This document shows, piece after piece, positions 42,936-62,339 of a stretch of DNA of 64,000 nt (position 1 is the stretch's first letter; every line of letters begins with the position of its first letter). A model generated the notes under the pieces. It was not told the DNA's origin and did no database searches. It saw nothing but the letters and a program-made list of their open reading frames with translations. Location: contig CM041465.1 in NCBI GenBank assembly GCA_023213395.1, positions 107,081,741 to 107,145,740 on the forward strand, given 5' to 3'. Both the position numbers and the translations under genes were made by a program. The stretch is from Cycas panzhihuaensis. Taxonomy: Eukaryota > Plantae > Cycadophyta.

Positions 42936-43783
42936 TGTGTATGGCCAAAGAGGCAACTTTTATTTTAAGGGAAAAAATTGGTGCAAGTAGGTTTTAAATA
43001 GGTACAATTAGGTACAGGCAGGTATAACCAGGCTGCTGACAGGTGCAACTAGGCTACTAACAGGTATAACTAGGCAACTGATAGGTGCAACCAAGCTGCT
43101 GGCAGGTGCAACTAGGTAGTTGACAGGTGCAACCAGGCTATTAGCATCTATTATTTTGAGGGAAAAAATATGTGCAACTAGGTTTTAAATAGGTACGATT
43201 AAGTATAGGTAGGTGTAACCAGGCTACTGGCAGGTGCAACCAAGGTACTGACATGTGTAACTAGGTAGCTGATAGGTGCAACCAGGCTATTGGAAGGTGT
43301 AACCAGATTGCTGGCATGTGCAACCAGACTGCAGGTAGGTGCAACTAGATTGTTGGCAGTTGTAACTAGATCACAACAGGTGCAACCTGATTTCTGACAA
43401 GTGTAATTCAGGTAGCGTCTAGTGCAACTAGGGCAACAACTGATGCAAATTAGGGCAGTATTAGTTATGTATAAAGTAAAATGATGATAAAGAATGATCG
43501 TTACATCAAGTAGTTGTAAGTGTAGATAGGAAATATAAATAAAGTTATAGCAAGAAGAAGGGGGTGTATTGTATTATATTGTTGTATGCTCCTATGAGTG
43601 CTGTCCAATTATGGCCTTTTACACATTGATTAGCCATACGTTTGGTTGTTATAGGACTAGACATAGTGCCCTTTTGATAATGGAAGTTTAGTTCTTTGTG
43701 CTCCAATATTATGTCTCTTTTCCTTGCTTGTAACTCATGTAGAATGCATTAGAGAGGATTAAGGTATTGATTTAAGGCACACA
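42936..43783 (+). repeat. Gypsy-C 5' LTR, copy 1 (21-bp CAGGTGCAAC array, internal ~190-bp duplication)
   Basis: Matches the 3' LTR; followed by a PBS at 43785. Confidence 0.9.
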
Positions 43784-43856
43784 TTGGTTCAATTACCAGG
43801 TATCCATAATTGAAAAAGAATGAGCAGCTGAGGATGAAGGAGTAAGGGGGAATTGT

Positions 43857-44517
43857 GCAGGCAAGTGTAACCAGGCTACTAAAATGTACAACTAAGCAGC
43901 TGGCAGGTGCAACCAGGATACTGGCAGGTGCAACTAGGTAGCTGATAGGTGCAACCAGGCTACTGGCAGGTGCAACTAGGCAACCGACAGGTGCAATTAA
44001 GTTACTGGAAGGTGCAACTAGACTATTGGAAGGTGCAACCAAATTGCTGGCATATGCAACTAGACTGTAGGCAGGTGCAACTAGATTATTGGCAGGTGTA
44101 ATTAGATCGCAATAGGTGCAACCAAATTTTTGACAAGTGCAATTCAGGCAACGTCTGGTGCAACTAGGGTAGCAACTAATGCAAATTAGGGTAGCATTAG
44201 TTATGTATAAAGTAAAATGATGGTAAAGAATGATGGTTACATCAAGTAGTTATAACTATAGATAGGAAATATAAATAAAGTTATGGCAAGAAGAAGGGAT
44301 CATTTTGTATTGTATTGTTGTATACTCCTATGAGTGTTGTCCAATTGCAGCCTTTTGCATATTATTTAAGCCTATGTTTGGTTGTTAGAGGACCAGACGT
44401 AGGTCCCTTTTGATAATGGAAGTTTGGTTCTTTGTGCTCAAATATTATCTATTTTCCTTGCTTATAACTCTTGTACAATGCATTCGAAAGGGTTAGGATA
44501 GGGATTTAAGGCACACA
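43857..44517 (+). repeat. Gypsy-C 5' LTR, copy 2 (5'-truncated)
   Basis: Tandem copy with period 734 bp; PBS TGGTTCCATTGCTAGG at 44519. Confidence 0.9.
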
Positions 44518-45101
44518 TTGGTTCCATTGCTAGGCATCCAGAATTGGAAAAGAATGAGTAGTTGAGGATGAAGGAGTAAGGGGGAATTGTATAGGCAGGT
44601 GCAACCGGGCTACTGGTCGGTACAACTAGGTAGCTGACAGGTGCAACTAGGCAACTAACAGGTGAAATCAAGTTGCTGGCAGGTGCAACTAGACTAATAG
44701 AAGGTGCAACTAGATTGCTAGCATGTGCAACCAGACTGTAAGCAAGTGCAATCAGATTGCTAGAAGTTATAATTAAATCACAATAGGTGTAACCAGATTT
44801 CCAACAGGTGCAATTCAGGCACCATCCGGTGTAACTAGGGCAGTAGCTGATGTGAATTAGGGCAGTATTAGTTATGTATAAAGTAAAATGATGATAAAGA
44901 ATGATCATTACATCAAATAGTTGTAACTATAGATAGGAAATATAAATAAAGTTATGGTAAGAAGAAGGGGGCATATTGTATTGTATTGTTGTATACTCCT
45001 ATGAGTGCTATCCAACTACGGCCTTTTGCACATTGTTCAGGGCTACGTTTGGTTGTTAGAGGACTAGACATAGGGCCCTTTTGATAATGGAAGTTTGGTT
45101 C

Positions 45102-45398
45102 TAAAAAGAGTGGATCTATCCTTCATCTCCATGCACTCAACACAAAGGCAAACATGGGAGCAAGAGAGACTTGAGAGAAAGAAAGTAGCTCTCACAAAAT
45201 GGGGAGGTAAGAATGAATCTCCTCCATTGAGCTTTACTTTTATATTGAGAGAGGGAGCATTTGAGTTAGGTGAAATGAAATTACACATAATGCATATGAA
45301 AGTGCATTTCACTTAAGTGATCTAATTTAAAGTTCACTTAAGACCCTTTTTCGAAATAATCAACTAATGTAATGACCTTATGTCATTAACCCTTTTCA
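45102..45398 (-). repeat. Copia 3' LTR
   Basis: Direct repeat of 52393-52689. Confidence 0.97.
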
Positions 45399-45831
45399 AT
45401 CTCCCCCTTAATGGTAGAAGGTCATTTCATTCTATTTTATTCTATCCTATGAGGTCTTCATTTGAGCCTCTTACAAAGCAAACTAGTATGATACTTTTGT
45501 GGGAAACCCTCATGGGGAAGAAAACCCACGAATTTTCTAATCTACTAACCTGGCTCAAGCAGCTCTTTAAATGTAGCCAGATAGCCAATCAGTACAATAA
45601 ATTTTGTAGCTGAAATCTACTGAGTCTCCATATACCATTTGGTCATCCCCCATGCCCTTTCAGGTTTTCACAGGTTTCGATTTTCTAAAATGATACAACC
45701 CTTATCCTTTCGCGCCCACATGGGGTTTTCACGAATGGGATAGAGCAGAGACTTACTCTTGTCCTTCCGTGCCCACAAGGGGTTTTCACGAATGAGACAG
45801 AGTATGATGGTCCTATTATCATCTCCTTCAA

Positions 45832-48800
45832 TCAGTCAAAGATGGAGGCCCTAAGGTTGAGTTGCTTTCGGAACTGTTCAAACTTCACCCTCTTCAGTGG
45901 TTTGGTGAAGATATCGGCCACTTGATCTGCTGTGGGGAAGTACTCCAATTGAATTGTGCCATTATGAACTAGTTCTCTAATCCTGTGGAATTTTGTACTT
46001 ATATGTTTGGTACGATCATGAAATACAGGATTTTTAGCCATCTGGATTGTAGATTGATTATCTACATGTAAGCTAGTAGAACTTGTTTGGGTGGCATTTA
46101 ATGTATTCAATAATTTTCTGAGCCATATCACCTCCTTGCTTGTCTCGTATGAATGTACTCAAAGTAGCTTGAGTCTGCAACTATCTTACGTCGTGCGGAT
46201 CTCCATGATATTGGTCTTTGTTCCAAGAAATGTTACGTGCACGTAGATCTTCCCGTGTCTTTATCTCCCAAGAAAGTCCGAGTCTATGTATGCATAAAGT
46301 TTAAATTCTACATTGGGTTCATACAATGCACCATATTTGCTAGTCGCCTTTAGGTACCTCAACACTCATATTGCGACTTGCCAATGATTACGCTTAGGAT
46401 TTGTCATGAATCTTGCAAGAATGCCGACAAAGTGTGCAATATCCGCCTTGTGTTGGTAGTATAGATGAGACTACCTACAAGTTGCCTCAGAGTATTGGCC
46501 CCGCCTCTATTGTCACCATCAACTGAGAGCTTAATATTAGGCTCCATAGGTGTATCCACTGGTCGAGCACCTTCCAACTGAAACTTTGTCAGAAGATCGT
46601 TGATATATTTTTCTTGGGAGAGAAAGATTTTGCCATCCTTTTGAGTTACTTCAATTCCCAAGTAATATTTCATCAACTCGAGGTCAGACAATTCAAAAGT
46701 TTTAGCAAGGTCCTTCTTTAGCTGGCTAATTACCTGTTCACTATTCCCTGTTATAAGCATGTCGTCCATAAAGATTAAGAGGTAAGTGACTTTATCATTT
46801 TGGCGCTTGATGAATAATGTTGCATCAATATCTTGATAGTCACAAACCTCATATCCAAGTTGCCTCATTCTTTCAGACAACTTGGTAAACCAAGCACGAG
46901 GGGCTTGCTTTAGGTCAGATAAGGACTTTTTGAGCATACAAACTTTATGCTCATGACCGTCAATCTCGTATCCTTCTGGCTGAGCCATGTAAATTTCTTC
47001 TTTAAGGTCCCCATTGAGAAATGCGGTCTTAACATCGAGTTGGTGGATTTTCCAACCCTGTTGAGCAGCCAAGGCTATTAGAGTTCTGATTGTAGGCCAC
47101 TTGGTTGTAGGAGCAAAGATTTCAGTGTAGTCAATGCCTTCCCTTTGCGTAAATCCTTTTGCTACCAACCTCGCCTTGTGTTTTTCTAGGGTGCCATCTG
47201 ATCTATACTTGTTTTTGAACACCCATTTATTTTGAACTACCTTTCTTCCAAGTGGTAGATCAATAAGCTCCCATGTACCGTTCTTAATAAGAGATTGATA
47301 CTCTTCATTCATGGCATTTCTCCAAGCTGTATGCTTTACAGCTTCTTGGTACGTTAGGGGCTCTTCATTAAGAGCAAGATGCAGTTCTACTGGTTCAAGC
47401 TCAACGGAAAGTGATTCATGCATCCTTGCTCTATGGGCACTTCTAGTGCCAGTTTTGCCTACCTCATCTGGTCGCATGTCCTTGTGTAGCTGGTAGGCTT
47501 CACGAAAACCTCAAGTTGGGAATGAGGTTTTCATTTCCACAACCTCTTGATCTTCGTTTTGATCCTGAAAAGGATCATGTGAAATATTTGGCATGGAGGA
47601 AGTTGATGATGTTGGAGAAGATGGGCCAGCCACAAATGTTGGAGAAGATGATCCTTCTACTATGGCTTTGCCTTTGTCAACTTGGCTGTTCATAAATGAT
47701 GGTGCTGGATGTGTACACATTGGATTGGAGTCACAACTTGTATCCTCCGAGGCTCTATTGTTATATTCCAAGATTTTAAGCATCTGTTCAGCATCTCCCC
47801 CCCTAAATTTTGGAATCTGGACATCAAATTCAGTAGCATCATTAAATCGGTATGAAGGTGTCTTGGAGTCAAGTCTGAGTAATTGATCTTCAGTCTCTGC
47901 AAAGATAACATCTCTAGAGATGATGATTTTGCACTCTGAAGGTATAAAAACCTTGTGTCCCTTTTTGTCCATAGGGTATCCGACAAAGATGCCTTTGATG
48001 GCTCTATCTTGGAGCTTATTTCTATGTTCCTGCAAAACATGAGCATAACAAGTAGAGCCAAAAATTCTAAAGTGGGAGATATAGGGGGTTTGTCCATACC
48101 ACATTTCATGTGGAGAGGGGCCGAGCTTGGAGGGACTAACAATGTTGATGCAATACACAGCAGCCCGTATAGCCTCACAAAGATAGATATGGACATTCTT
48201 ATATACCAGCATAGCACGAGCCATATTCATGATGGTCCTATTCATACGCTCGGTAACTCCATTTTGCTGGGGTGTACCTACAACAAAGGGTCCGATGTTT
48301 GATTCCACGTTGATGTAGGTACGATTCAAACTCATTGGATGTGTACTCGCCACCATTGTCAGTCCTGAGTATTTTGATCTTGAATCCAGATTCATTTTCC
48401 ACATGGGCCTTGTAAGCTTGAAACATAGACGAAGCTTCATCTTTCTGTGCAAGAAGAGCAACCCATCCTTCCTTGGCAAAATCATCAAGGAAAGTAATAT
48501 AGTACCACTTCTGTTTGATAGAAGGGATGGGCATAGGACCGCATATATCTGAGTGTACAAGCTGCAAAGGTTGGGTAGATTTCCACTGACTACGAGGAAA
48601 GGGTTGTCTTTGAGATTTAGCAATAATACATGCTTCACATTTAAAGGGCTTGGAGGGGAACTTAGGCAAACCAAGAAGAGTGTCTTGTAGTTCTCTTAAA
48701 CGATCAATTTTGATATGGCCCATACGAGCATGCCATAGAGATGCTTGGGACAACTTTTGAGGAGTCAGGGTTGTGGTAAAAATAAATTTATCATCAACAT

Positions 48801-50334
48801 AGTTGGCTTCAGAGGATGATGAGCCAGTTAGGTGAAAAAGTTTGCCATCAAGAATTCTGGTCATAACCACAAAGATTTGAAGGAGGGTGAATGACACGTA
48901 GAGTTTGATTGTTTGCGCTACACTCGGATCAAATCCACGAGAGACAAGGGTGGACAGGGAGAGCGATTCTACTTGAGCGTGAATATATAAAACATCAACA
49001 AGTGTAAAACTGGAAGGCACAGGAGTTTCGTGCAAACTGTTCCAAGTCCTTCGACTGGCTGAGATGATTTGTCAGCCATGTGTACAACACCACGAACTTC
49101 AGAGTCAAAATCTTGAAAGAAATGGTGATGACAAGTCATGTGTTGTGTTGCTCCAGTATCCATGATCCACGATGAAGTATTTGAGGTAGCACTATTTGCA
49201 ACTCCAAGTGGTGAAGGCAAAAGTGAATAAGCATAGCCACAATGAGCCTCAATATACTTAGTGGATCTATCAACAACATTTGATGAAGTGGTCCCAATTC
49301 TTTGAAGGTGTGCATGAGCAAATTACGTTCCACCAAAAGCATCTTCAAAAGAAGTATTATCAACATTATGTGCACCATGGCGCTGTTGATAACTTGGTAG
49401 TTTGTTGGTGGCAGTTCTGCAATTTTTGGCATAATGCCCTCTTCTATTACACCTTTGGCACACGATTGTTTGATTTCCAGTCCAAGTATTAGGCTGGTTG
49501 GATTGTCTATGATTACTGGATCTAGGTCCAGGTTGATTATTTTGGCCTTGGCCTTGAGACTGTTTTTGTTGGAATTGAGGAGCCTGTTGACTAAGAGGAT
49601 GTTGTCCTTGTTGTCTACCTCTTCCTCTTCCACGGGAATTACCACCTCTACGAGAGTATTGACCTTGATTTTTGGTGTAACAAAGATCTTCTTCCACTTC
49701 AAAAGCAAAGATCAATTGGATCTGATGTAGTGGCAAAGTTGGTATCAAATGTCTTATCAAATTCAATGAACTTATCAGCAAGATCCTCAAAGTTTAGGGT
49801 CTTCAAAGTTCCACTAGATTGAAGAGTCCCTAATAGATTTTTATAATCTGGGATATGGAGACATGACTGAATCAAGAAAGCCCATGTAATGCATTGAGTT
49901 TTAAAATCTTTATCAATGGCTTGCTTGATTGGATGAAGGAGATTGATTGTCTCACTTGCATGTCCTTTCTGCATTTTCAATTTGTTCATCTTCAGCACTA
50001 AGTGAACAAATTCTAAGTCTGATTTAGTGTCAAAGTTCTTCTTAAGAACTTCAAGAACTTTCCATGATGTATCATGTATAGCTTCATCAATGAGATTATG
50101 CAGGAATAATCGGTGACAAGCGATATCCCCGCGGATTTTGTCATCATCAAGTTCCCATTGGCGTTTAGCTACAACTTGATGGGAGCGGTTGAGCACCTCC
50201 TCAAGGCTAGAAATTGTAGTCAGCAATGTGGTGGTGTTGTAAGTGATCTCTCCATAGACCTTCATACTTTGCAAAGATTTCGACACGATGAACCACATGT
50301 CCCAATTTTCTTTCCCTTTTAGAATGCAGTTCAC
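45832..50334 (-). pseudogene. pol: Copia gag-pol polyprotein, frameshifted
   Basis: CQRCNRRGHYAKNC, WIMDTGATQHM, LWHARMGH, LVHSDICGP, DNGGEY, ARLVAKGFTQ, HQLDVKTAFLNG, FMDD and DQVADIFTKPL across at least 7 ORF pieces. Confidence 0.97.
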
Positions 50335-52392
50335 ATTTTGCTTGAACTATGAAGACATTGTGTCTTTTTAGAAGGGAAGAAATGAACAAGGGACTATAAA
50401 AGTGATGGCAATAAATGACCGATCACTATTTACAAATGGGAAATGTAATGAAGTAGTGTAGAAGAAGGAAGAAGAAGTGAGAATGGTTGCTCAAAGATGA
50501 AGGAAGCAACTTAGAGAAAAGTCACCAACACTTGTGACAAATATTAACTTTGACGCAGCAGAATATGAGAAGCACTATGATAAAAATTGGCCACTAACAC
50601 TTGTGGCAAATATTAACCTCGATGCAAAGCAGGAATATGAGAAGCACTATGATTGTGATTACACTATGGATCACTTTTTACAAATAAGTAAGTGATCAAT
50701 ATACAAGATTATAGGTCAATGTAGAAGTTGACATCATTGGCTTTACACAACTTGAAACTCGAATGTAGGATGCGTAATCAACCCAATAACCTCTAACTTG
50801 TGTCCAACGTGTAGTTGAGGTTGTTGAAGGGATGCCTAGGCTTCTAGTAGAATTAATTTGGCCTTCACCCGCAATCGTGCTTGGTGATGAAATCCAAGTC
50901 ACAACGGAGCCCAGGTACTCCCAATCCTCACCCAGTTCACCAATGAGCAGCTATATACCTCCTCTAAAGAGTGGTACGTGCATACCCATAGCTATGACGG
51001 ATATTGGATTGGGTATATTTTAATCTTGTATTAAAGTTTCAGTTTTCCTGGTTGGTTATCGATGATCCACGATTGAGGCACGATGGTATGGCTAACCAAA
51101 CCTCACCAATATTAGGTTTAGTCGGTCCCAACTTGAAACCCACACCTCCTTTATGGCACTAAGATTCTGCCAACCAAGGTATCTCAACCTTGGCGAGTGT
51201 ATGAACAGGTACAAGATGGCGGAAAATAGCGTATGTGATGCGTTCCTTTTAGGAAGAGTGAAAAGATTATCGAATTGCATCAAACGTACATTTAACTAAA
51301 AATAATGTTTGCTTGGAGTGCTTTTGGAGTGCTTGCTTGAAGTGTCTTTGGAGTGCTTGCTTTGAGTGATTTTAGAGTGCTGAAATGTAATGCTAATAAG
51401 TGAGTGAGGACACCGGATATTGCTCCGATCCAGGTGTTTTTTTTTTCTCACTTTTACAATGGGCTTTTAAGCCTTATAAAAAGGAAGAAAATTTCTTCAC
51501 TTTTTTTTTTCTTTTTTTTTTGTTAATACAAAAAAAAGCACTCTTTACTAAATCTGCAATAACTTTCTCCCACGATGTCGAAATGGAGTGCCGGTTTTGT
51601 GTTGCAAACTAGACTTAGAGCTTCATCTTCAGGAAGTGGAATCAGGTCCAAATGAGTTCTGGAAAGTGTTTTATAGCCCCGCAAATTTAGGAAATTATAT
51701 TTTTCCAGAATTCTTGCTAAAAATAACTGCTGTTCACTAAAATAGCAATAACTTCCTCATACGACATCGAAATTAGGTGCCGATTTTTGTTCTGGAAAGT
51801 AGACTCAGAGCCCCATCTTTGACAATTAGAATCACTTCAATTGGATCTCTGTAGAAGATTTTGTAGACCTGTGAAGTTCAGTAATCAAATTATATTTCTG
51901 CAGAAATTTTAGCTTGCTAATATCTCATTAACACATGAGACCATATGAAATTTCCATCATTTTTTGATCACCAGGATCCCAATATGGGCAAGGTGAGAGC
52001 ATACAATGATAGATATTTTAAATGGCTCAAAGTTCTTTAAAGAAATGGGTAAAAAACTCCCCTTACAATCATTCTTCTAAATCTTTGGAAAAATTTCTAA
52101 AGATTTCCTCATAAATGGACAAAAAGGAAAAGAAAAGAAGAATGAGATAGCATGAATGGCTAGCAAAGGATTGGAATCCTTGGGCCTTACAACTCCTTGT
52201 ATTATGCTTCCAAACCTGTAAAAGAGAAAGGAAAAATAAACAATACAAAATATGCTATCATAATAACTTGAAAATATTTCTAAATTCACTTTCACAATCT
52301 CCTTCACCACATGGATTGTGGGGGAGAAGGAAGTGATGGCTCCATTGCAAGTACAAGTGGGGAATATAAAGGAAGTTTGCTCTGATACCACA

Positions 52393-52689
52393 TGAAAAGA
52401 GTGGATCTATCCTTCATCTCCATGCACTAAACACAAAGGTAAACATGGGAGCAAGAGAGACTTGAGAGAAAGAAAGTAGCTCTCACAAAATGGGGAGGTA
52501 AGAATGAATCTCCTCCATTGAGCTTTACTTTTATATTGAGAGAGGGAGCATTTGAGTTAGGTGAAATAAAATTACACATAATGCACATGAAAGTGCATTT
52601 CACTTAAGTGATCTAATTTAAAGTTCACTTAAGACCCTTTTTCGAAATAATTAACTAATGTAATGACCTTATGTCATTAACCCTTTTCA
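52393..52689 (-). repeat. Copia 5' LTR
   Basis: TGAAAAG...CTTTTCA; adjacent to the PBS. Confidence 0.97.
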
Positions 52690-53459
52690 GGTTCTTTGTG
52701 CTCCAATATTATGTCTCTTTTCCTTGCTTGTAACTCCTATAGAATGCAATCGAAAAGGTTAGGGTAGGGATTCAAGGTACACATTGGTTCCATTGCTAGG
52801 TATCCAGAATTGGAAAAGAATGAGCAATTGAGGATGAAGGAGTAAGAGGGAATTGTCCATGCCACTAAGGGTCAACTTCGTAAGAAGGGTTGAGACTAGG
52901 CAAGAACAAAGTCAATGGTGGGAGGCAGAAAGAAGCCAGGAGGGCACCTGCAAACCCAAATAACTAGTTGAAAGGAAGTAGGTCAGAAGGAGACATATGA
53001 AGGATAGATGAGAAGAAAGTCAGACCCTATGGGGATAAAGAAAAGAAACCAAAGAAAAAGAAAGTGAAGGAAAAGAAGGTATAGAAAGAACCTAAGAAGA
53101 AACCCAAGAATTGCACATGGAAGCCCTGAAGTGGATAGAGGACAAAGACCTTGAGAGCATAGAAGAAGAGAAAACCAGTTCAAAAGAAGGAAAATTAGTA
53201 AGTTTGGAAGTAGTAGCACCATCATAGCAGGGTGGGATTACTATCTTGTAGAAATCAAGTACTCCTATTCCCATGTACTGAACCCACTTTATAGTAAGAT
53301 AACAGATATGTTTTTAGGCTCAATGTTGTTGGGAGGAAGGCTAGAAAGCGCAAATAATATTCCCTCGAATCAAGGGATGAGCAAATGTGGAGGAATGAAC
53401 TCGACAATTCTAGTAAGAGGTGCAAACAAAATTGCACAGGGCATGCCAATGCCAATAGG

Positions 53460-56400: not shown

Positions 56401-58761
56401 TCCAATTCCTTTTACCAAGTACATATTGGAAAAAGTCACAGGGGACGAGGTATTTTCATTCACTAATGGGTTCAGTGGATATAATCAAGTCTAGATAGCA
56501 TTTAAAGACTAATTGAAGACCACATTTACCACAGAATGGGGCACTTATACCTATAGAGTAATGTTGTTTGGGCTAACCAACTCCCAACAACATTTCAAAG
56601 AATAATTCTGAATATATTCTATGAATTGATAGGAAAGGCAATTGAAGTGTTTTTGGATGACTGGACTTTGTATAGTTTGTTGAAAGATCACTTGTTCCAA
56701 TTAAGACTAATGCTAGAAATGTCTAGGAAAAATAGATTATGCTTGAATCTAGACAAATGTACCTTTATGGTACCATTTGGATCCTTGTTGGGTCATATTG
56801 TCTCAAAGGAAGGATTGATGACAGATCCAACAAAGGTGGAGATAATTCTAAAATTTCATGTTCCTCAAAACCTAAAGAATCTTAAAGGATTCTTGGGAAT
56901 AACTAGATATTACTAGAAATTTATAAGGGGGTATGCTCAAATTGTCTATCCCTTGAAATCATTGCTAAAGAAGGCAAACAAATGGGAATGGATGATGAGA
57001 CAACAATTGTCCTTTAATGCTTTGAAGAAAAGGATAGTAGAAGCCTTTGTACTTAGATTTCTGGATTAGAAGAAGCCATTCCATGTACGTGTGGATGCCT
57101 TGTTGTACGTGATTGGATGCATATTGGCTCAACCTGCTAATGAAAAAGTAGATCTTCCCATTGCATTTGAAATTTAAAATTTGTCATCAACTGAATGTAA
57201 CTATATAATTATAGAATGAGAGAGGCTTGGCATGATTTATGCCTTGTAAAAAATTTGTCATTATTTGTTGGCTAACCTATTTGTATTCTTTGTTGACCAT
57301 CAGGTTCTGCAATATCTCATCAATAAGCCTATCCTCCATAGAAGGATTAGTCATTGGCTAATGCTTTTTTAGGAGTTAATGTTTAAAATTATGGTAAAAA
57401 AGGGGGACAAACATGTGATACCAGACCAACTATCTAGGATAAAGAAAGGAGAACCAGGTACTGGAATATTTGATGACTTTCTAGACCATAAACTATTTTC
57501 CATTGAAGTTGTTCCATCTTGGTATGAGGGGATTACAGAGTATTTGTCCACGGGACAAACACCTAAAGGATTAGAAAGTGCAGAAAGAAGAAGTTTTATC
57601 AAGAAAGCCTTTTCTTTCCAACTCATAGGTGGCATGTTGTATAAAATGGTGCTAGATGAAGTGCTGAGGAGATGCATATTGCAACATGAAGTGCAATTAA
57701 TATTGAGAGAGGTACACAAGGGAGCAGTTTCAACTCATCATGGGAGTGAAGCCACGGCTCGAAAAGTTTTATTACCAAGACTATGGTGGCCAAATTTATT
57801 CAAAGATGCTGAAAAATGGGTAAAAACCTGTGACATTTGCCAGCGAACAGGTAAGCCCTCTAAACAGAACTATCTACCCCTACATCCTATCTTAGCCCAA
57901 GTGCCCCATTTGAAAAATGGGGGCTAGATTTCGTAGGACCAATCAACCCTCTGACTTGTAAGGTATATATTGGTGACCATAGATTTTCTAACAAAATAAA
58001 TAGAAGCCAAACCAATGAAGAAATGTGATGCAAGGAGTACAGCCTAATTTTTATATGAAGTCATCATAGTAAGGTTTGGTTGTCCCCTGGAGATTGTATC
58101 AGATCAAGGAGGGAGTTTTTTGAATCAAATAATCAAATATTTGACCTCAGAGCTCTTAACACAGCATAGTAAATCTTCACCATACTACCCCAAGGCGAAT
58201 GGACAGGTTGAAAGTATGAATAAAATCTTGAAGATAACCCTGATGAAAATCTGTAATGTAGACCAGACATATTGGGTAGAAAAGTTACATTCAATTCTTT
58301 GAGCAGATAGAATGATGGAGAAAAGGTCGCATAAACATACTCCATTCCAATTGGCATACAGGTTGTAAGCAGTGGTTCCTTTGGAATTTCAGGCAGAAAG
58401 CCTATGAGTGGCATAACAACTAAGGCTGGAACTAGAAATTTCTTATAATCAAAGATTGATTTAACTGACGAAGTTAAATGAGACATGAGCTCGAACCCTA
58501 TGGGAGCTCCAGGTAGAGAAAAGAAGATGCAAGGCCTGGTATGATCGACATCTGAAGAAACCTGAATATAAGGTAAATGAATTAGTTTTACTATATGATA
58601 GTAAATTTAAAATGAAATCAGGTAAGATGAAAATTAGATGGTTAGGTCTTTATAAAGTCATTTACATCTATGAAAATGGAGCAGTTAGGTTAGAGCAGTT
58701 AGATGGTCAACCATTGACCAAGTTGGTCAATGGTAGCAGGACAAAATTATACAAAACATTA
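53460..58761 (+). pseudogene. pol: Gypsy-C gag-pol, decayed
   Basis: FDGSRDPRDHLALF; three knuckles; PR TIVDGGSGVN; RT DVFAWSYKDL and VFLDDWT; RH HVRVDA; INT zinc finger HHG...CDICQR, YYPKANGQVE and IRWLG. Confidence 0.95.
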
Positions 58762-58910
58762 AAAAAAAAATGAGCATAAAGAACTGAGGGGACAAGATCT
58801 CTACTTAGAAGGAGACATTCAGAGAATTCAACAAGGATAAAGTCAATGGCGTGATAGTTGTGTTTATTAAAAGTAATAATGAATAAATAAGAAAACAACT
58901 GGTATTCAAC

Positions 58911-59211
58911 TGTAACAAACCGTTACACCAAAACCCCGAGGTGTTAGTGAAGACCACCCAAGTGTGTAACAATACCTCCCCCACAAGGCATTGACGTCCC
59001 GGCGACCCACTCTTGGTGACCCACACTTGATAATTTCGCGCCCCATCGGGCCCCGGATGAACACTACTATGCCGGCGTTCTATCGAGGTCGTCCCCTCCA
59101 AGGTCGTCCCCTCCGGGACTCGAACCCGTGACCTTGGCTCTGATACCACTTGTAACAAACCGTTACACCAAAACCCCGAGGTGTTAGTGAAGACCACCCA
59201 AGTATGTAACA
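58911..59211 (-). mobile_element. TRIM / SMART-type miniature LTR retrotransposon, 301 bp
   Basis: 61-bp LTRs (58911-58971, 59151-59211; 1 mismatch); perfect TSD TCAAC; Met PBS TGGTATCAGAGCC 59136-59148; PPT GGGGGAGGTAT; no ORF. Confidence 0.97.
59116..59170 (-). promoter_or_regulatory. Putative tRNA-type RNA polymerase III promoter (A box 59160-59170, B box 59116-59126)
   Basis: TGGTGTAACGG, 33 nt, then GGTTCGAGTCC on the minus strand. Confidence 0.6.
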
Positions 59212-59629
59212 TCAACTACCAATGGGCGGTGTGACCACCTCAAGCAAAGATACAATGAAATCATGATGGAAAGATATGCAACAACCATAACTAATTATCA
59301 GCGGTGTGGTGTGACCACCAATGCGACAACTACCAAATGATGTTGGGAAACATGTAAGTGACTGGTGAAGAAATAACCGATGGCATGGTGCATACTTAGT
59401 GTGACCACTGTGAGGAATGATGAGACTTGTCAATTCAAATAGAATGTCACCATTTGGTAAGAGGGATATGGTGCAGCGATGGAAAGTTTAAGAAAGAGGG
59501 TTGAGATGGCAATTAAAACGGAGCATCGCAGGATTGTGAGCAGTAGGGAAAGCGACGCACAAGGATGACGAAGATAATTCTATTAAGGGAAAACAATGAT
59601 CCTTGGATTTATGTAGAATAGCAGTTCAT

Positions 59630-61303: not shown

Positions 61304-61833
61304 TGTGTATAGCCAAAGAGGCAACTGTTATTTTGAGGAAATAAATAGGTGCAACTAGGCTTTAAATAGGTACGACTAAGTGCAAGTAGATACAACAAGT
61401 TGCTGGCAGGTGCAACCAGATCACAATAGGTGCAATCAGATTTCCAGCAAGTGCAACTCAGGTAGCATTTGGTGCAAGTAGGGCAGCAGCTGATGCGAAT
61501 TAGGTTAGCATTAGTTATGTATAAAGTAAAATGATGATAAATAATGATCATTACATCAAGTACTTGTACCTATAGATAGGAAATATAAATAAAGTTATGG
61601 CAAGAAGAAGGGGGCGTATTGTATTGTATTTCTATATACTCCTGTGAGTGTCATCCAACTATGACCTTTTGTACACTCTTCATGCTTATGTCTAGTTGTG
61701 AGAGGACCAGATGCAGGACACTTTTGATAATGGAAGTTTGGTTCTTTGTTCTCAAACATTGTGTCTCTTTTCCTTGCTTGTAACTCTTGTAGAATGCATT
61801 CGAAAGGGTTAGGGTAGGGATTCAAGGCACACA
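61304..61833 (+). repeat. Gypsy-C 3' LTR
   Basis: Preceded by a short PPT (AGGAGAGA); contains few 21-bp units. Confidence 0.95.
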
Positions 61834-61838
61834 ATTAG

Positions 61839-62339
61839 TGTGCCCTTATATTAAAAAGATTCTTAAATTGTTGGAGCATGAGGCTGTTAGGGGTGCTCTC
61901 TAAAAGTTCCCAAGCTTTCTTTATAGTCCTTCCCATACCCTTTACATGAACTATAAGGACAAGCTCAGAATTGTTAGTGGATAAAACGATCAAAATTGAT
62001 TGAAATGACCAAAAGTGAACAAAATAGGCCCAAAAATGACCAAAATGACCTAGAAATGGCCAGAATGGCCCCACAAATGGTCAAAACAACCCAAAATGGC
62101 TAGAACGATCCTAAGAATGGCCAAAACTATCCCAAGAATAGTTAGAATGGATGTGTTTTCAAAAGAAATGCAACACAGTTTGAAATGCACAAAAGAGAAT
62201 GCATGGAATACACATCTAGATCAAAGTCGTACATTCCAAGTTTGCTCATATCATTAGTGGACATGTTTTCGTACGACTGTATGGACATAATAAAGTGTAA
62301 TGAATGAATGTTTAGTGGAATCACAATGAAAGGGTGCTT
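61839..62339 (+). mobile_element. Old Copia-like element, continuation after Gypsy-C
   Basis: Resumes after TSD ATTAG; faint protease-like remnant (AW..HLD..TFQVC) at ~62195-62240; AAAATGRCC short repeats at ~62000-62140. Confidence 0.5.

Follow-up and report, generated by a model that had tools for sequence, protein, structure and literature searches.

An Element of 301 bp in a Repeat-Rich Window

The window, by which we mean the whole 64-kb stretch of Cycas panzhihuaensis DNA that was analyzed, is repeat-rich, has a GC content of 36% and carries remnants of Copia and Gypsy elements. It contains one copy of the element described here. The features of this copy, given in the order of the minus strand, are as follows:

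58911..59211, minus strand: whole TRIM, 301 bp, non-coding
59212..59216, minus strand: target site duplication GTTGA, upstream copy
59151..59211, minus strand: 5' LTR, 61 bp, TG...CA, without a match to TATA or AATAAA
59173..59182, minus strand: self-complementary 10-mer with four Watson-Crick pairs and one G-U pair, predicted start site and start of R
59170..59173, minus strand: T4 of the 5' LTR, linking the palindrome to the A box, predicted read-through
59160..59170, minus strand: A-box match in the 5' LTR, 0 mismatches to the presumed consensus
59135..59148, minus strand: primer-binding site (PBS) of the methionine type, after a 2-nt spacer
59116..59126, minus strand: B-box match in the internal domain, the sole match, 33 nt past the A box
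59086..59114, minus strand: short tandem duplication in the internal domain, 2 x 14 nt, period 15
58975..58982, minus strand: polypurine tract
58911..58971, minus strand: 3' LTR
58930..58942, minus strand: 3' copy of the palindrome with T4, predicted terminator and 3' R
58930..58933, minus strand: T4 of the 3' LTR, predicted terminator
58920..58930, minus strand: A-box match in the 3' LTR, agreeing with the presumed consensus
58906..58910, minus strand: target site duplication, downstream copy

With two LTRs, a PBS, a polypurine tract (PPT), a target site duplication (TSD), a length below 1 kb, no retrotransposon protein and an interspersed multi-copy family, the element is a TRIM. Its size, the 61-bp LTRs and the one mismatch between them (position 8, T/C) had been given in a preliminary description of this DNA and are confirmed by the sequence together with the 5-bp TSD. 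The supplement of PMC13570524 assigns the same PBS 12-mer to Methionine. The sole stop-free frame of at least 100 aa across the TRIM is 136 aa long and had no Pfam match. The tandem duplication seems to be missing from other copies of the family, and in three sequencing runs loose contig ends were observed within it, at 59101. As described before, the element is CpG-rich, with an observed/expected ratio of 0.91 compared to 0.26 in the window. It had also been called very young. At an assumed rate of 1.3e-8, the single LTR mismatch corresponds to 0.016-3.4 Myr, which establishes the element as young but not as very young.

Several other repeats are located in the window. A Copia element with broken frames (RVT_2, SH3_retrovirus) occupies 45104-52870 on the minus strand, with a PBS at 52390 and a 295-bp LTR stretch of 98% identity; the module of palindrome, T4 and A box described below is absent from the end of its LTR. 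A broken Gypsy-type pol remnant (RVT_1, Integrase_H2C2) lies on the plus strand at 56557-57927, approximately 1 kb from the TRIM. Repeats with a period of ~700 bp, ~80-86% alike, were seen at 42936-45056 and 61304-61912, with a further copy near 61.4 kb. The sequences on either side of the TRIM are repetitive too, and across the TRIM a number of contigs are joined in the way expected of empty sites in paralogous repeats.

Promoter Motifs at the LTR/PBS Junction

The A-box and B-box patterns used for matching follow what we take to be the consensus. With these patterns, the A box was found in the LTR (59170-59160) and the B box 33 nt later, past the PBS (59126-59116), as had been proposed. The second claim, that both boxes are present at the 5' end only, holds as well, the B-box match being the single one. 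A pair in which a B box comes 20-60 nt behind an A box arose in 7 of 20,000 dinucleotide shuffles, and there was no second occurrence of this pair in the window. As single motifs, the A box appeared in 1380 and the B box in 1379 of the 20,000 shuffles. The distance between the T of the A box and the G of the B box is 45 nt, which we take to be that of a standard tRNA, and AGGTC falls at what are presumably tRNA positions 44-48; A box, AGGTC and T loop are in tRNA register. T4 runs on the minus strand are confined to 59173-59170 and 58933-58930, both in the LTRs. This is in line with the preliminary description, yet 61% of the shuffles also lack an internal T4, so that its absence from the element is unremarkable.

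A tRNA-like fold with D arm and T arm, which had been suggested too, is not kept. The T-stem of the element has 4 of 5 pairs, whereas among the 16 copies compared it has between 2 and 5 of 5, and the D hairpin is variable; a conserved tRNA cloverleaf was therefore rejected. ARAGORN detected no tRNA in the element, and Rfam searches of it at E ≤ 10 returned no tRNA, no 5S RNA and no ribozyme family. A bacterial promoter scan gave nothing relevant.

Variation among Copies of the Family

Parts of the stretch are contained in 20 of 24 listed sequencing runs, covering ten organism codes, with no run containing more than 0.36 of its words. Four DNA runs were mapped on 701 bases, and three DNA runs together with one run guessed to be RNA on a 122-base junction. 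Between 1369 and 3040 contigs per run aligned to the junction in the three DNA runs, indicating a multi-copy family. In the mapping on 701 bases, contigs came loose at the LTR termini of the element and continued into unrelated flanking sequence. Sister subfamilies have a different 5' half of the LTR and different letters after the PBS, yet they keep the full B box.

According to the preliminary description, boxes in use should be more conserved among copies than their flanks, an expectation on which the data do not discriminate. Within 59121-59178, the positions covered by the junction variants, nearly all variation of at least 4% is C>T/G>A and occurs alike in boxes, PBS and spacers, and within the family no greater constancy was seen at box positions than at spacer positions. 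A C of the B box is missing in 4%, 23% and 10% of the depth in the three runs. None of the five high-frequency variants (59116, 59119, 59127, 59157 and 59176) falls on an essential position of the boxes or T4 (P about 0.10). The variant at 59176, the only one of these inside the palindrome, converts its G-U to an A-U pair and thereby improves pairing.

The run guessed to be RNA (X18) yielded 18 contigs on the junction; they carry no start, end, strand or level and count neither way. A 3-nt insertion after the A box (59159) accounts for about half of the depth of this run, the RNA nature of which is a guess, and for almost none in the three DNA runs. It may stem from one expressed locus or from another accession.

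The Arrangement Recurs in Other Small Elements

Metagenomes were scanned for a PBS followed, after 0-14 nt, by a B-box core; the A box and T4 were outside this search pattern. At least 107 loci matched. The 107 listed loci and the window formed 60 clusters, of which 11, with another LTR-like repeat no more than 650 nt away, are referred to as small elements. Some of the other 49 clusters are chance bacterial matches and not retroelements. Among the matches listed, a T4 adjoining an A box (at most 1 mismatch) within 45 nt before the PBS was present in 6 of the 11 small clusters (5 of 10 if the window is left out) but in none of the 49 others; for an A box with zero mismatches, the corresponding numbers were 4 of 11 and 0 of 49. 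The Fisher P for the T4/A-box contrast is 9e-6, a value that overstates independence because the clusters may share ancestry. In two small clusters (L013, L032) T4 and A box are located in a real LTR and are shifted from the PBS by an insertion or deletion, and three (L007, L039, L054) failed the T4/A-box test. One of the six positive clusters is SMART, as the letters of L022, L031, L033, L048, L055 and L074 match SMART PARE tags (Table S2 in Gao 2012, PMC3281118). Six SMART-type copies have a TATA 41-43 nt upstream of the A box, which is ~30 nt upstream of the palindrome, and an A box with 1-2 mismatches. The sisters of the element (L057, L091) have no TATA.

The A-to-B distance was 44-45 or 54-57 nt in 16 copies among the matches listed, and AGGTC recurs in several families. 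An internal T4 or T5 was found in 4 of 13 complete relatives; the 9 without one compare to 5.7 expected, a difference that is not significant. At the level of motifs, and among the matches listed, Pol III promoter motifs are conserved across families, as in the TRIMp3 class. The split type-2 Pol III promoter proposed in the preliminary description gains support from comparison, since among the matches listed A box and T4 occur together in small elements only; its conserved tRNA-like fold does not. That description had also cautioned that B-box motifs occur in other plant TRIMs. They do, and because SMART and other plant TRIMs carry all of the arrangement, the element is not unique in having it. 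Taken alone, a B-box motif behind the PBS says little: in 64 of the 107 listed matches it lies at most 5 nt from the PBS, mostly in elements that lack both an A box and a nearby second LTR. In the module-bearing loci among these matches, it lies 7-12 nt from the PBS in 22 of 22 cases.

Scans of viral contigs gave 0 matches. A scan of genome contigs gave 58 mostly chance prokaryotic matches, which were used as a control set only; in this set we counted 1 palindrome (see below), 0 B boxes and 7 A boxes within 1 mismatch.

Three other observations were made in the survey. Positions 1-330 of L091 form a tandem array of ~65-nt units of LTR end plus PBS from a sister family, with a B box after the last unit only. 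L007 and L039/L051/L069 are larger TRIMs with a TATA ~30 nt before a palindrome and T run; their A boxes are weak, the B-box motif follows immediately on the PBS, and they may represent a connection between the module and ordinary TRIMs driven by TATA. In L142, from a contig filed under a Liberibacter MAG, the PBS is followed by an ATG frame and the locus resembles a eukaryotic retrotransposon, possibly due to host contamination.

A Palindrome Ending in T4 Precedes the A Box

In eight clusters among the matches listed, a self-complementary 10-mer spans positions -12 to -3 relative to the A box, and its last base is the first T of T4. When one well-preserved copy was chosen from each cluster, full pairing at -12 was seen in 8 of 8 clusters, compared to 0 at 38 of 41 other offsets and 3 at the best other one; the offset was found post hoc on the same loci. 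The listed LTR sites are fully paired in 30 of 38 cases, a listing that omits weak 3' sites (at least L095) and one non-LTR site, and controls in 2 of 174, 2 of 193 and 1 of 58. A looser scan found the palindrome in 20 of 27 small-element loci and in 6 of 74 others among the matches listed.

Across 19 aligned sites, 95.8% of the cells pair and two-sided changes occur in 3 of the 5 pairs. The covariation score was 0.83, compared to 0.37 for shuffled and at most 0.22 for slid alignments, while the count of changed pairs alone was equalled by 451 of 500 shuffles. As the structure was derived from the same sequences, these statistics are biased in its favour. The frequent G-U pairs suggest pairing in RNA more than a protein site. 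The TATA ~30 nt before the palindrome in the six SMART-type copies makes the palindrome the likely start under either polymerase.

We also calculated how the predicted RNA would fold. Its first 13 nt fold at -0.5 kcal/mol, and its two palindromes pair with each other at -15.5 kcal/mol and a mean probability of 0.97. In other elements, this pairing probability was 0.96-0.97 in 7 of 8 cases and 0.33 in L061. This pairing follows from the palindrome itself and is not independent evidence. For the whole element, the folding z score was -2.1, largely owing to the pairing of the two palindromes.

A Model for Transcription and Termination

Considering these results, we think it probable that transcription by Pol III begins at the palindrome and continues through the first T4, a weak one, until the second T4 ends it; there the two ends of the RNA would pair, giving an R of ~13 nt. 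Pol III would be recruited by a tRNA-type internal promoter, with the A box in the 5' LTR and the B box just past the PBS. It is known that A and B boxes recruit TFIIIC and that TATA is optional in plant tRNA genes (PMC11700998, PMC13437025). The predicted start is the first purine of the palindrome (59182), 12 nt upstream of the A box, so that 29 bp of LTR sequence lie upstream of it; a plant-type CAA start motif was not found at this site. Since the first 13 nt fold weakly, Pol III should pass the first T4. At the second T4 (58933-58930), the new palindrome would pair with the first, and the resulting 10-bp helix, similar to a tRNA acceptor stem, would aid release. In vitro, yeast Pol III is not released at T4 alone, and an adjacent RNA helix turns T4 into a moderate terminator (Xie 2022, PMC9278858). 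A precedent for a Pol III unit that starts and ends in LTRs, with an R of 18 bp, is Cassandra (Kojima 2024, PMC10886601). The predicted product is an RNA of ~253 nt, from 59182 to 58930, with the self-complementary R of ~13 nt at both ends. The palindromic R could also serve in strand transfer or dimer formation. The element would be primed by tRNA-Met, and a Copia element would probably mobilize it in trans; the search for an autonomous partner in the surveyed loci and in the window was negative. Because both boxes occur at the 5' end only, the 3' LTR and solo LTRs would be silent. The position of T4 near the start had been raised as a caveat against Pol III. The T4 is indeed there, but it rather favours the Pol III reading, since an LTR element needs a terminator just past its start to form R.

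More tentatively, and with clearly less confidence than in the model for this element, we propose that the smallest plant LTR retrotransposons, SMART and the family of the element, constitute a hitherto unrecognized Pol III class with its promoter only at the 5' LTR/PBS junction and with the palindromic ~13-nt R as a switch. At the 5' end Pol III would ignore T4, at the 3' end it would respond to it, as only there the RNA ends can pair.

The most serious alternative, which we nevertheless regard as unlikely, is transcription by Pol II, with a minimal LTR promoter that derives from a Copia element with short LTRs (Ale/Retrofit). The palindrome would then be a generic signal of R for dimerization or strand transfer, and the boxes would either bind TFIIIC as a chromatin or insulator signal or be inert. 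The TATA at about -30 in SMART-type copies suits Pol II equally well, and L007 and L039, with their poor A boxes, have it too; in the LTR of the element and its sisters, TATA is lacking. According to Gao 2012 (PMC3281118), SMART LTRs contain TATA and an 11-bp motif in common with the Copia element FRetro64, and poly(A)-derived PARE tags map to SMARTs. These tags, however, come from SMARTs within host genes and match both strands, and the same source reports no polyadenylation or termination signal for SMART LTRs. For TRIM-01 of sugar beet, which has a similar size and PPT, an LTR similarity of 97.3% to an autonomous Retrofit Copia is listed (Maiwald 2026). Should TRIM-01 have the module, the LTR half of the arrangement would not be specific to Pol III units; the LTR end of the window's own Copia has no such module. 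Pol II transcription gives no account of why, among the matches listed, small elements alone combine a B box with an A box at the distance seen in tRNA and with a T4 joined directly to that A box.

Alternatively, the B box could act in the RNA, either by extra pairing with the T arm of the primer tRNA or as a T-loop mimic for a helper reverse transcriptase, with the A box being incidental. This explanation appears improbable to us. The motif fits a PBS extended into what we take to be a near-palindromic T arm, and the recurrence of AGGTC as well as the many motifs directly after a PBS, mostly without second LTR or A box, point in the same direction. Against it stand the spacing of 7-12 nt in all module-bearing loci and the T-stem, which is not conserved; A box and T4 are left unexplained. 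The least probable reading is that a tRNA or SINE was captured long ago and that the motifs, simply inherited from it, no longer have a function: the boxes show no extra constraint within the family and the clusters may be one lineage, but motifs and geometry persist although the divergence of the LTRs exceeds the threshold used for BLAST clustering, and the letters of the palindrome have changed in compensating pairs.

If the smallest plant elements do use Pol III in this way, the module would supply the terminator missing in SMART and, more generally, answer how one short signal can act both as start region and as terminator. How elements of ~300 bp with LTRs of 60-85 bp are transcribed and terminated was left open for SMART (Gao 2012, PMC3281118). 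A widespread group of gene-associated plant TRIMs would then act as scattered TFIIIC sites and give rise to small RNA without a cap, and no promoter activity would be expected from their solo LTRs. The value of the arrangement lies in a module common to plant mini-elements and in its exact predictions, namely the 5' and 3' ends, the polymerase and the termination switch.

Comparison with Known TRIM Systems

Cassandra had been named as a precedent, but it is not the nearest one, since TRIMs of the tRNA type have already been published. Helenus (TRIMp3; Kojima 2024, PMC10886601) is also a TRIM, with a PBS, a PPT, a 5-bp TSD and A and B boxes of the tRNA type, and has one plant member, in Selaginella, in that account. 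For Helenus and the element alike, the use of Pol III is deduced from motifs. Helenus carries a whole tRNA-like unit inside each LTR (as in Helenus-1_SMo's LTR), whereas in the element the B box belongs to the internal domain, the PBS separates the two boxes, and the palindrome and T4 precede the A box. As its B box is outside the LTR, the element is not a Helenus by definition, although it likely works in the manner of TRIMp3 (Cassandra, Helenus).

Cassandra, a plant TRIM, is transcribed by Pol III; its start and terminator are near each other within the LTR, and R measures 18 bp (PMC10886601, PMC7215508, PMC12786077, PMC4079214, PMC10853983). In contrast to the element, it has a 5S-derived type-1 promoter that is complete in each LTR, measures 565-860 bp and is experimentally supported; the TRIM literature consulted presents it as the sole TRIM with validated Pol III transcription. 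The element has no 5S match at E ≤ 10 in Rfam. Retrozymes carry a self-cleaving ribozyme in the LTR, and no ribozyme family matched the element at the same threshold.

SMART (FRetro129; Gao 2012, PMC3281118) resembles the element in its length of ~290 bp, its tiny LTRs and its 5-bp TSD, and SMART loci show the same layout of palindrome-T4-A box, PBS and B box. Unlike the element, SMART occurs in grasses; its LTRs measure 85 bp and contain TATA, its A box is degenerate, and the spacing is 57 nt. Sequence similarity between the two is limited to 30-37 nt from the PBS to the B box. Judged by its sequence, the element is neither Cassandra nor SMART. In the portions of these papers at hand, Gao 2012 (PMC3281118) mentions no polymerase and found no terminator for SMART, Gao 2016 mentions neither promoter nor Pol III, and Maiwald 2026 mentions no B box, Pol III or palindrome. 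In the openly accessible papers searched, we found no report of a split promoter or a palindrome-T4 module in plant TRIMs. What is new here is the self-complementary 10-mer ending in T4, which is shared by eight clusters among the matches listed and shows compensatory changes.
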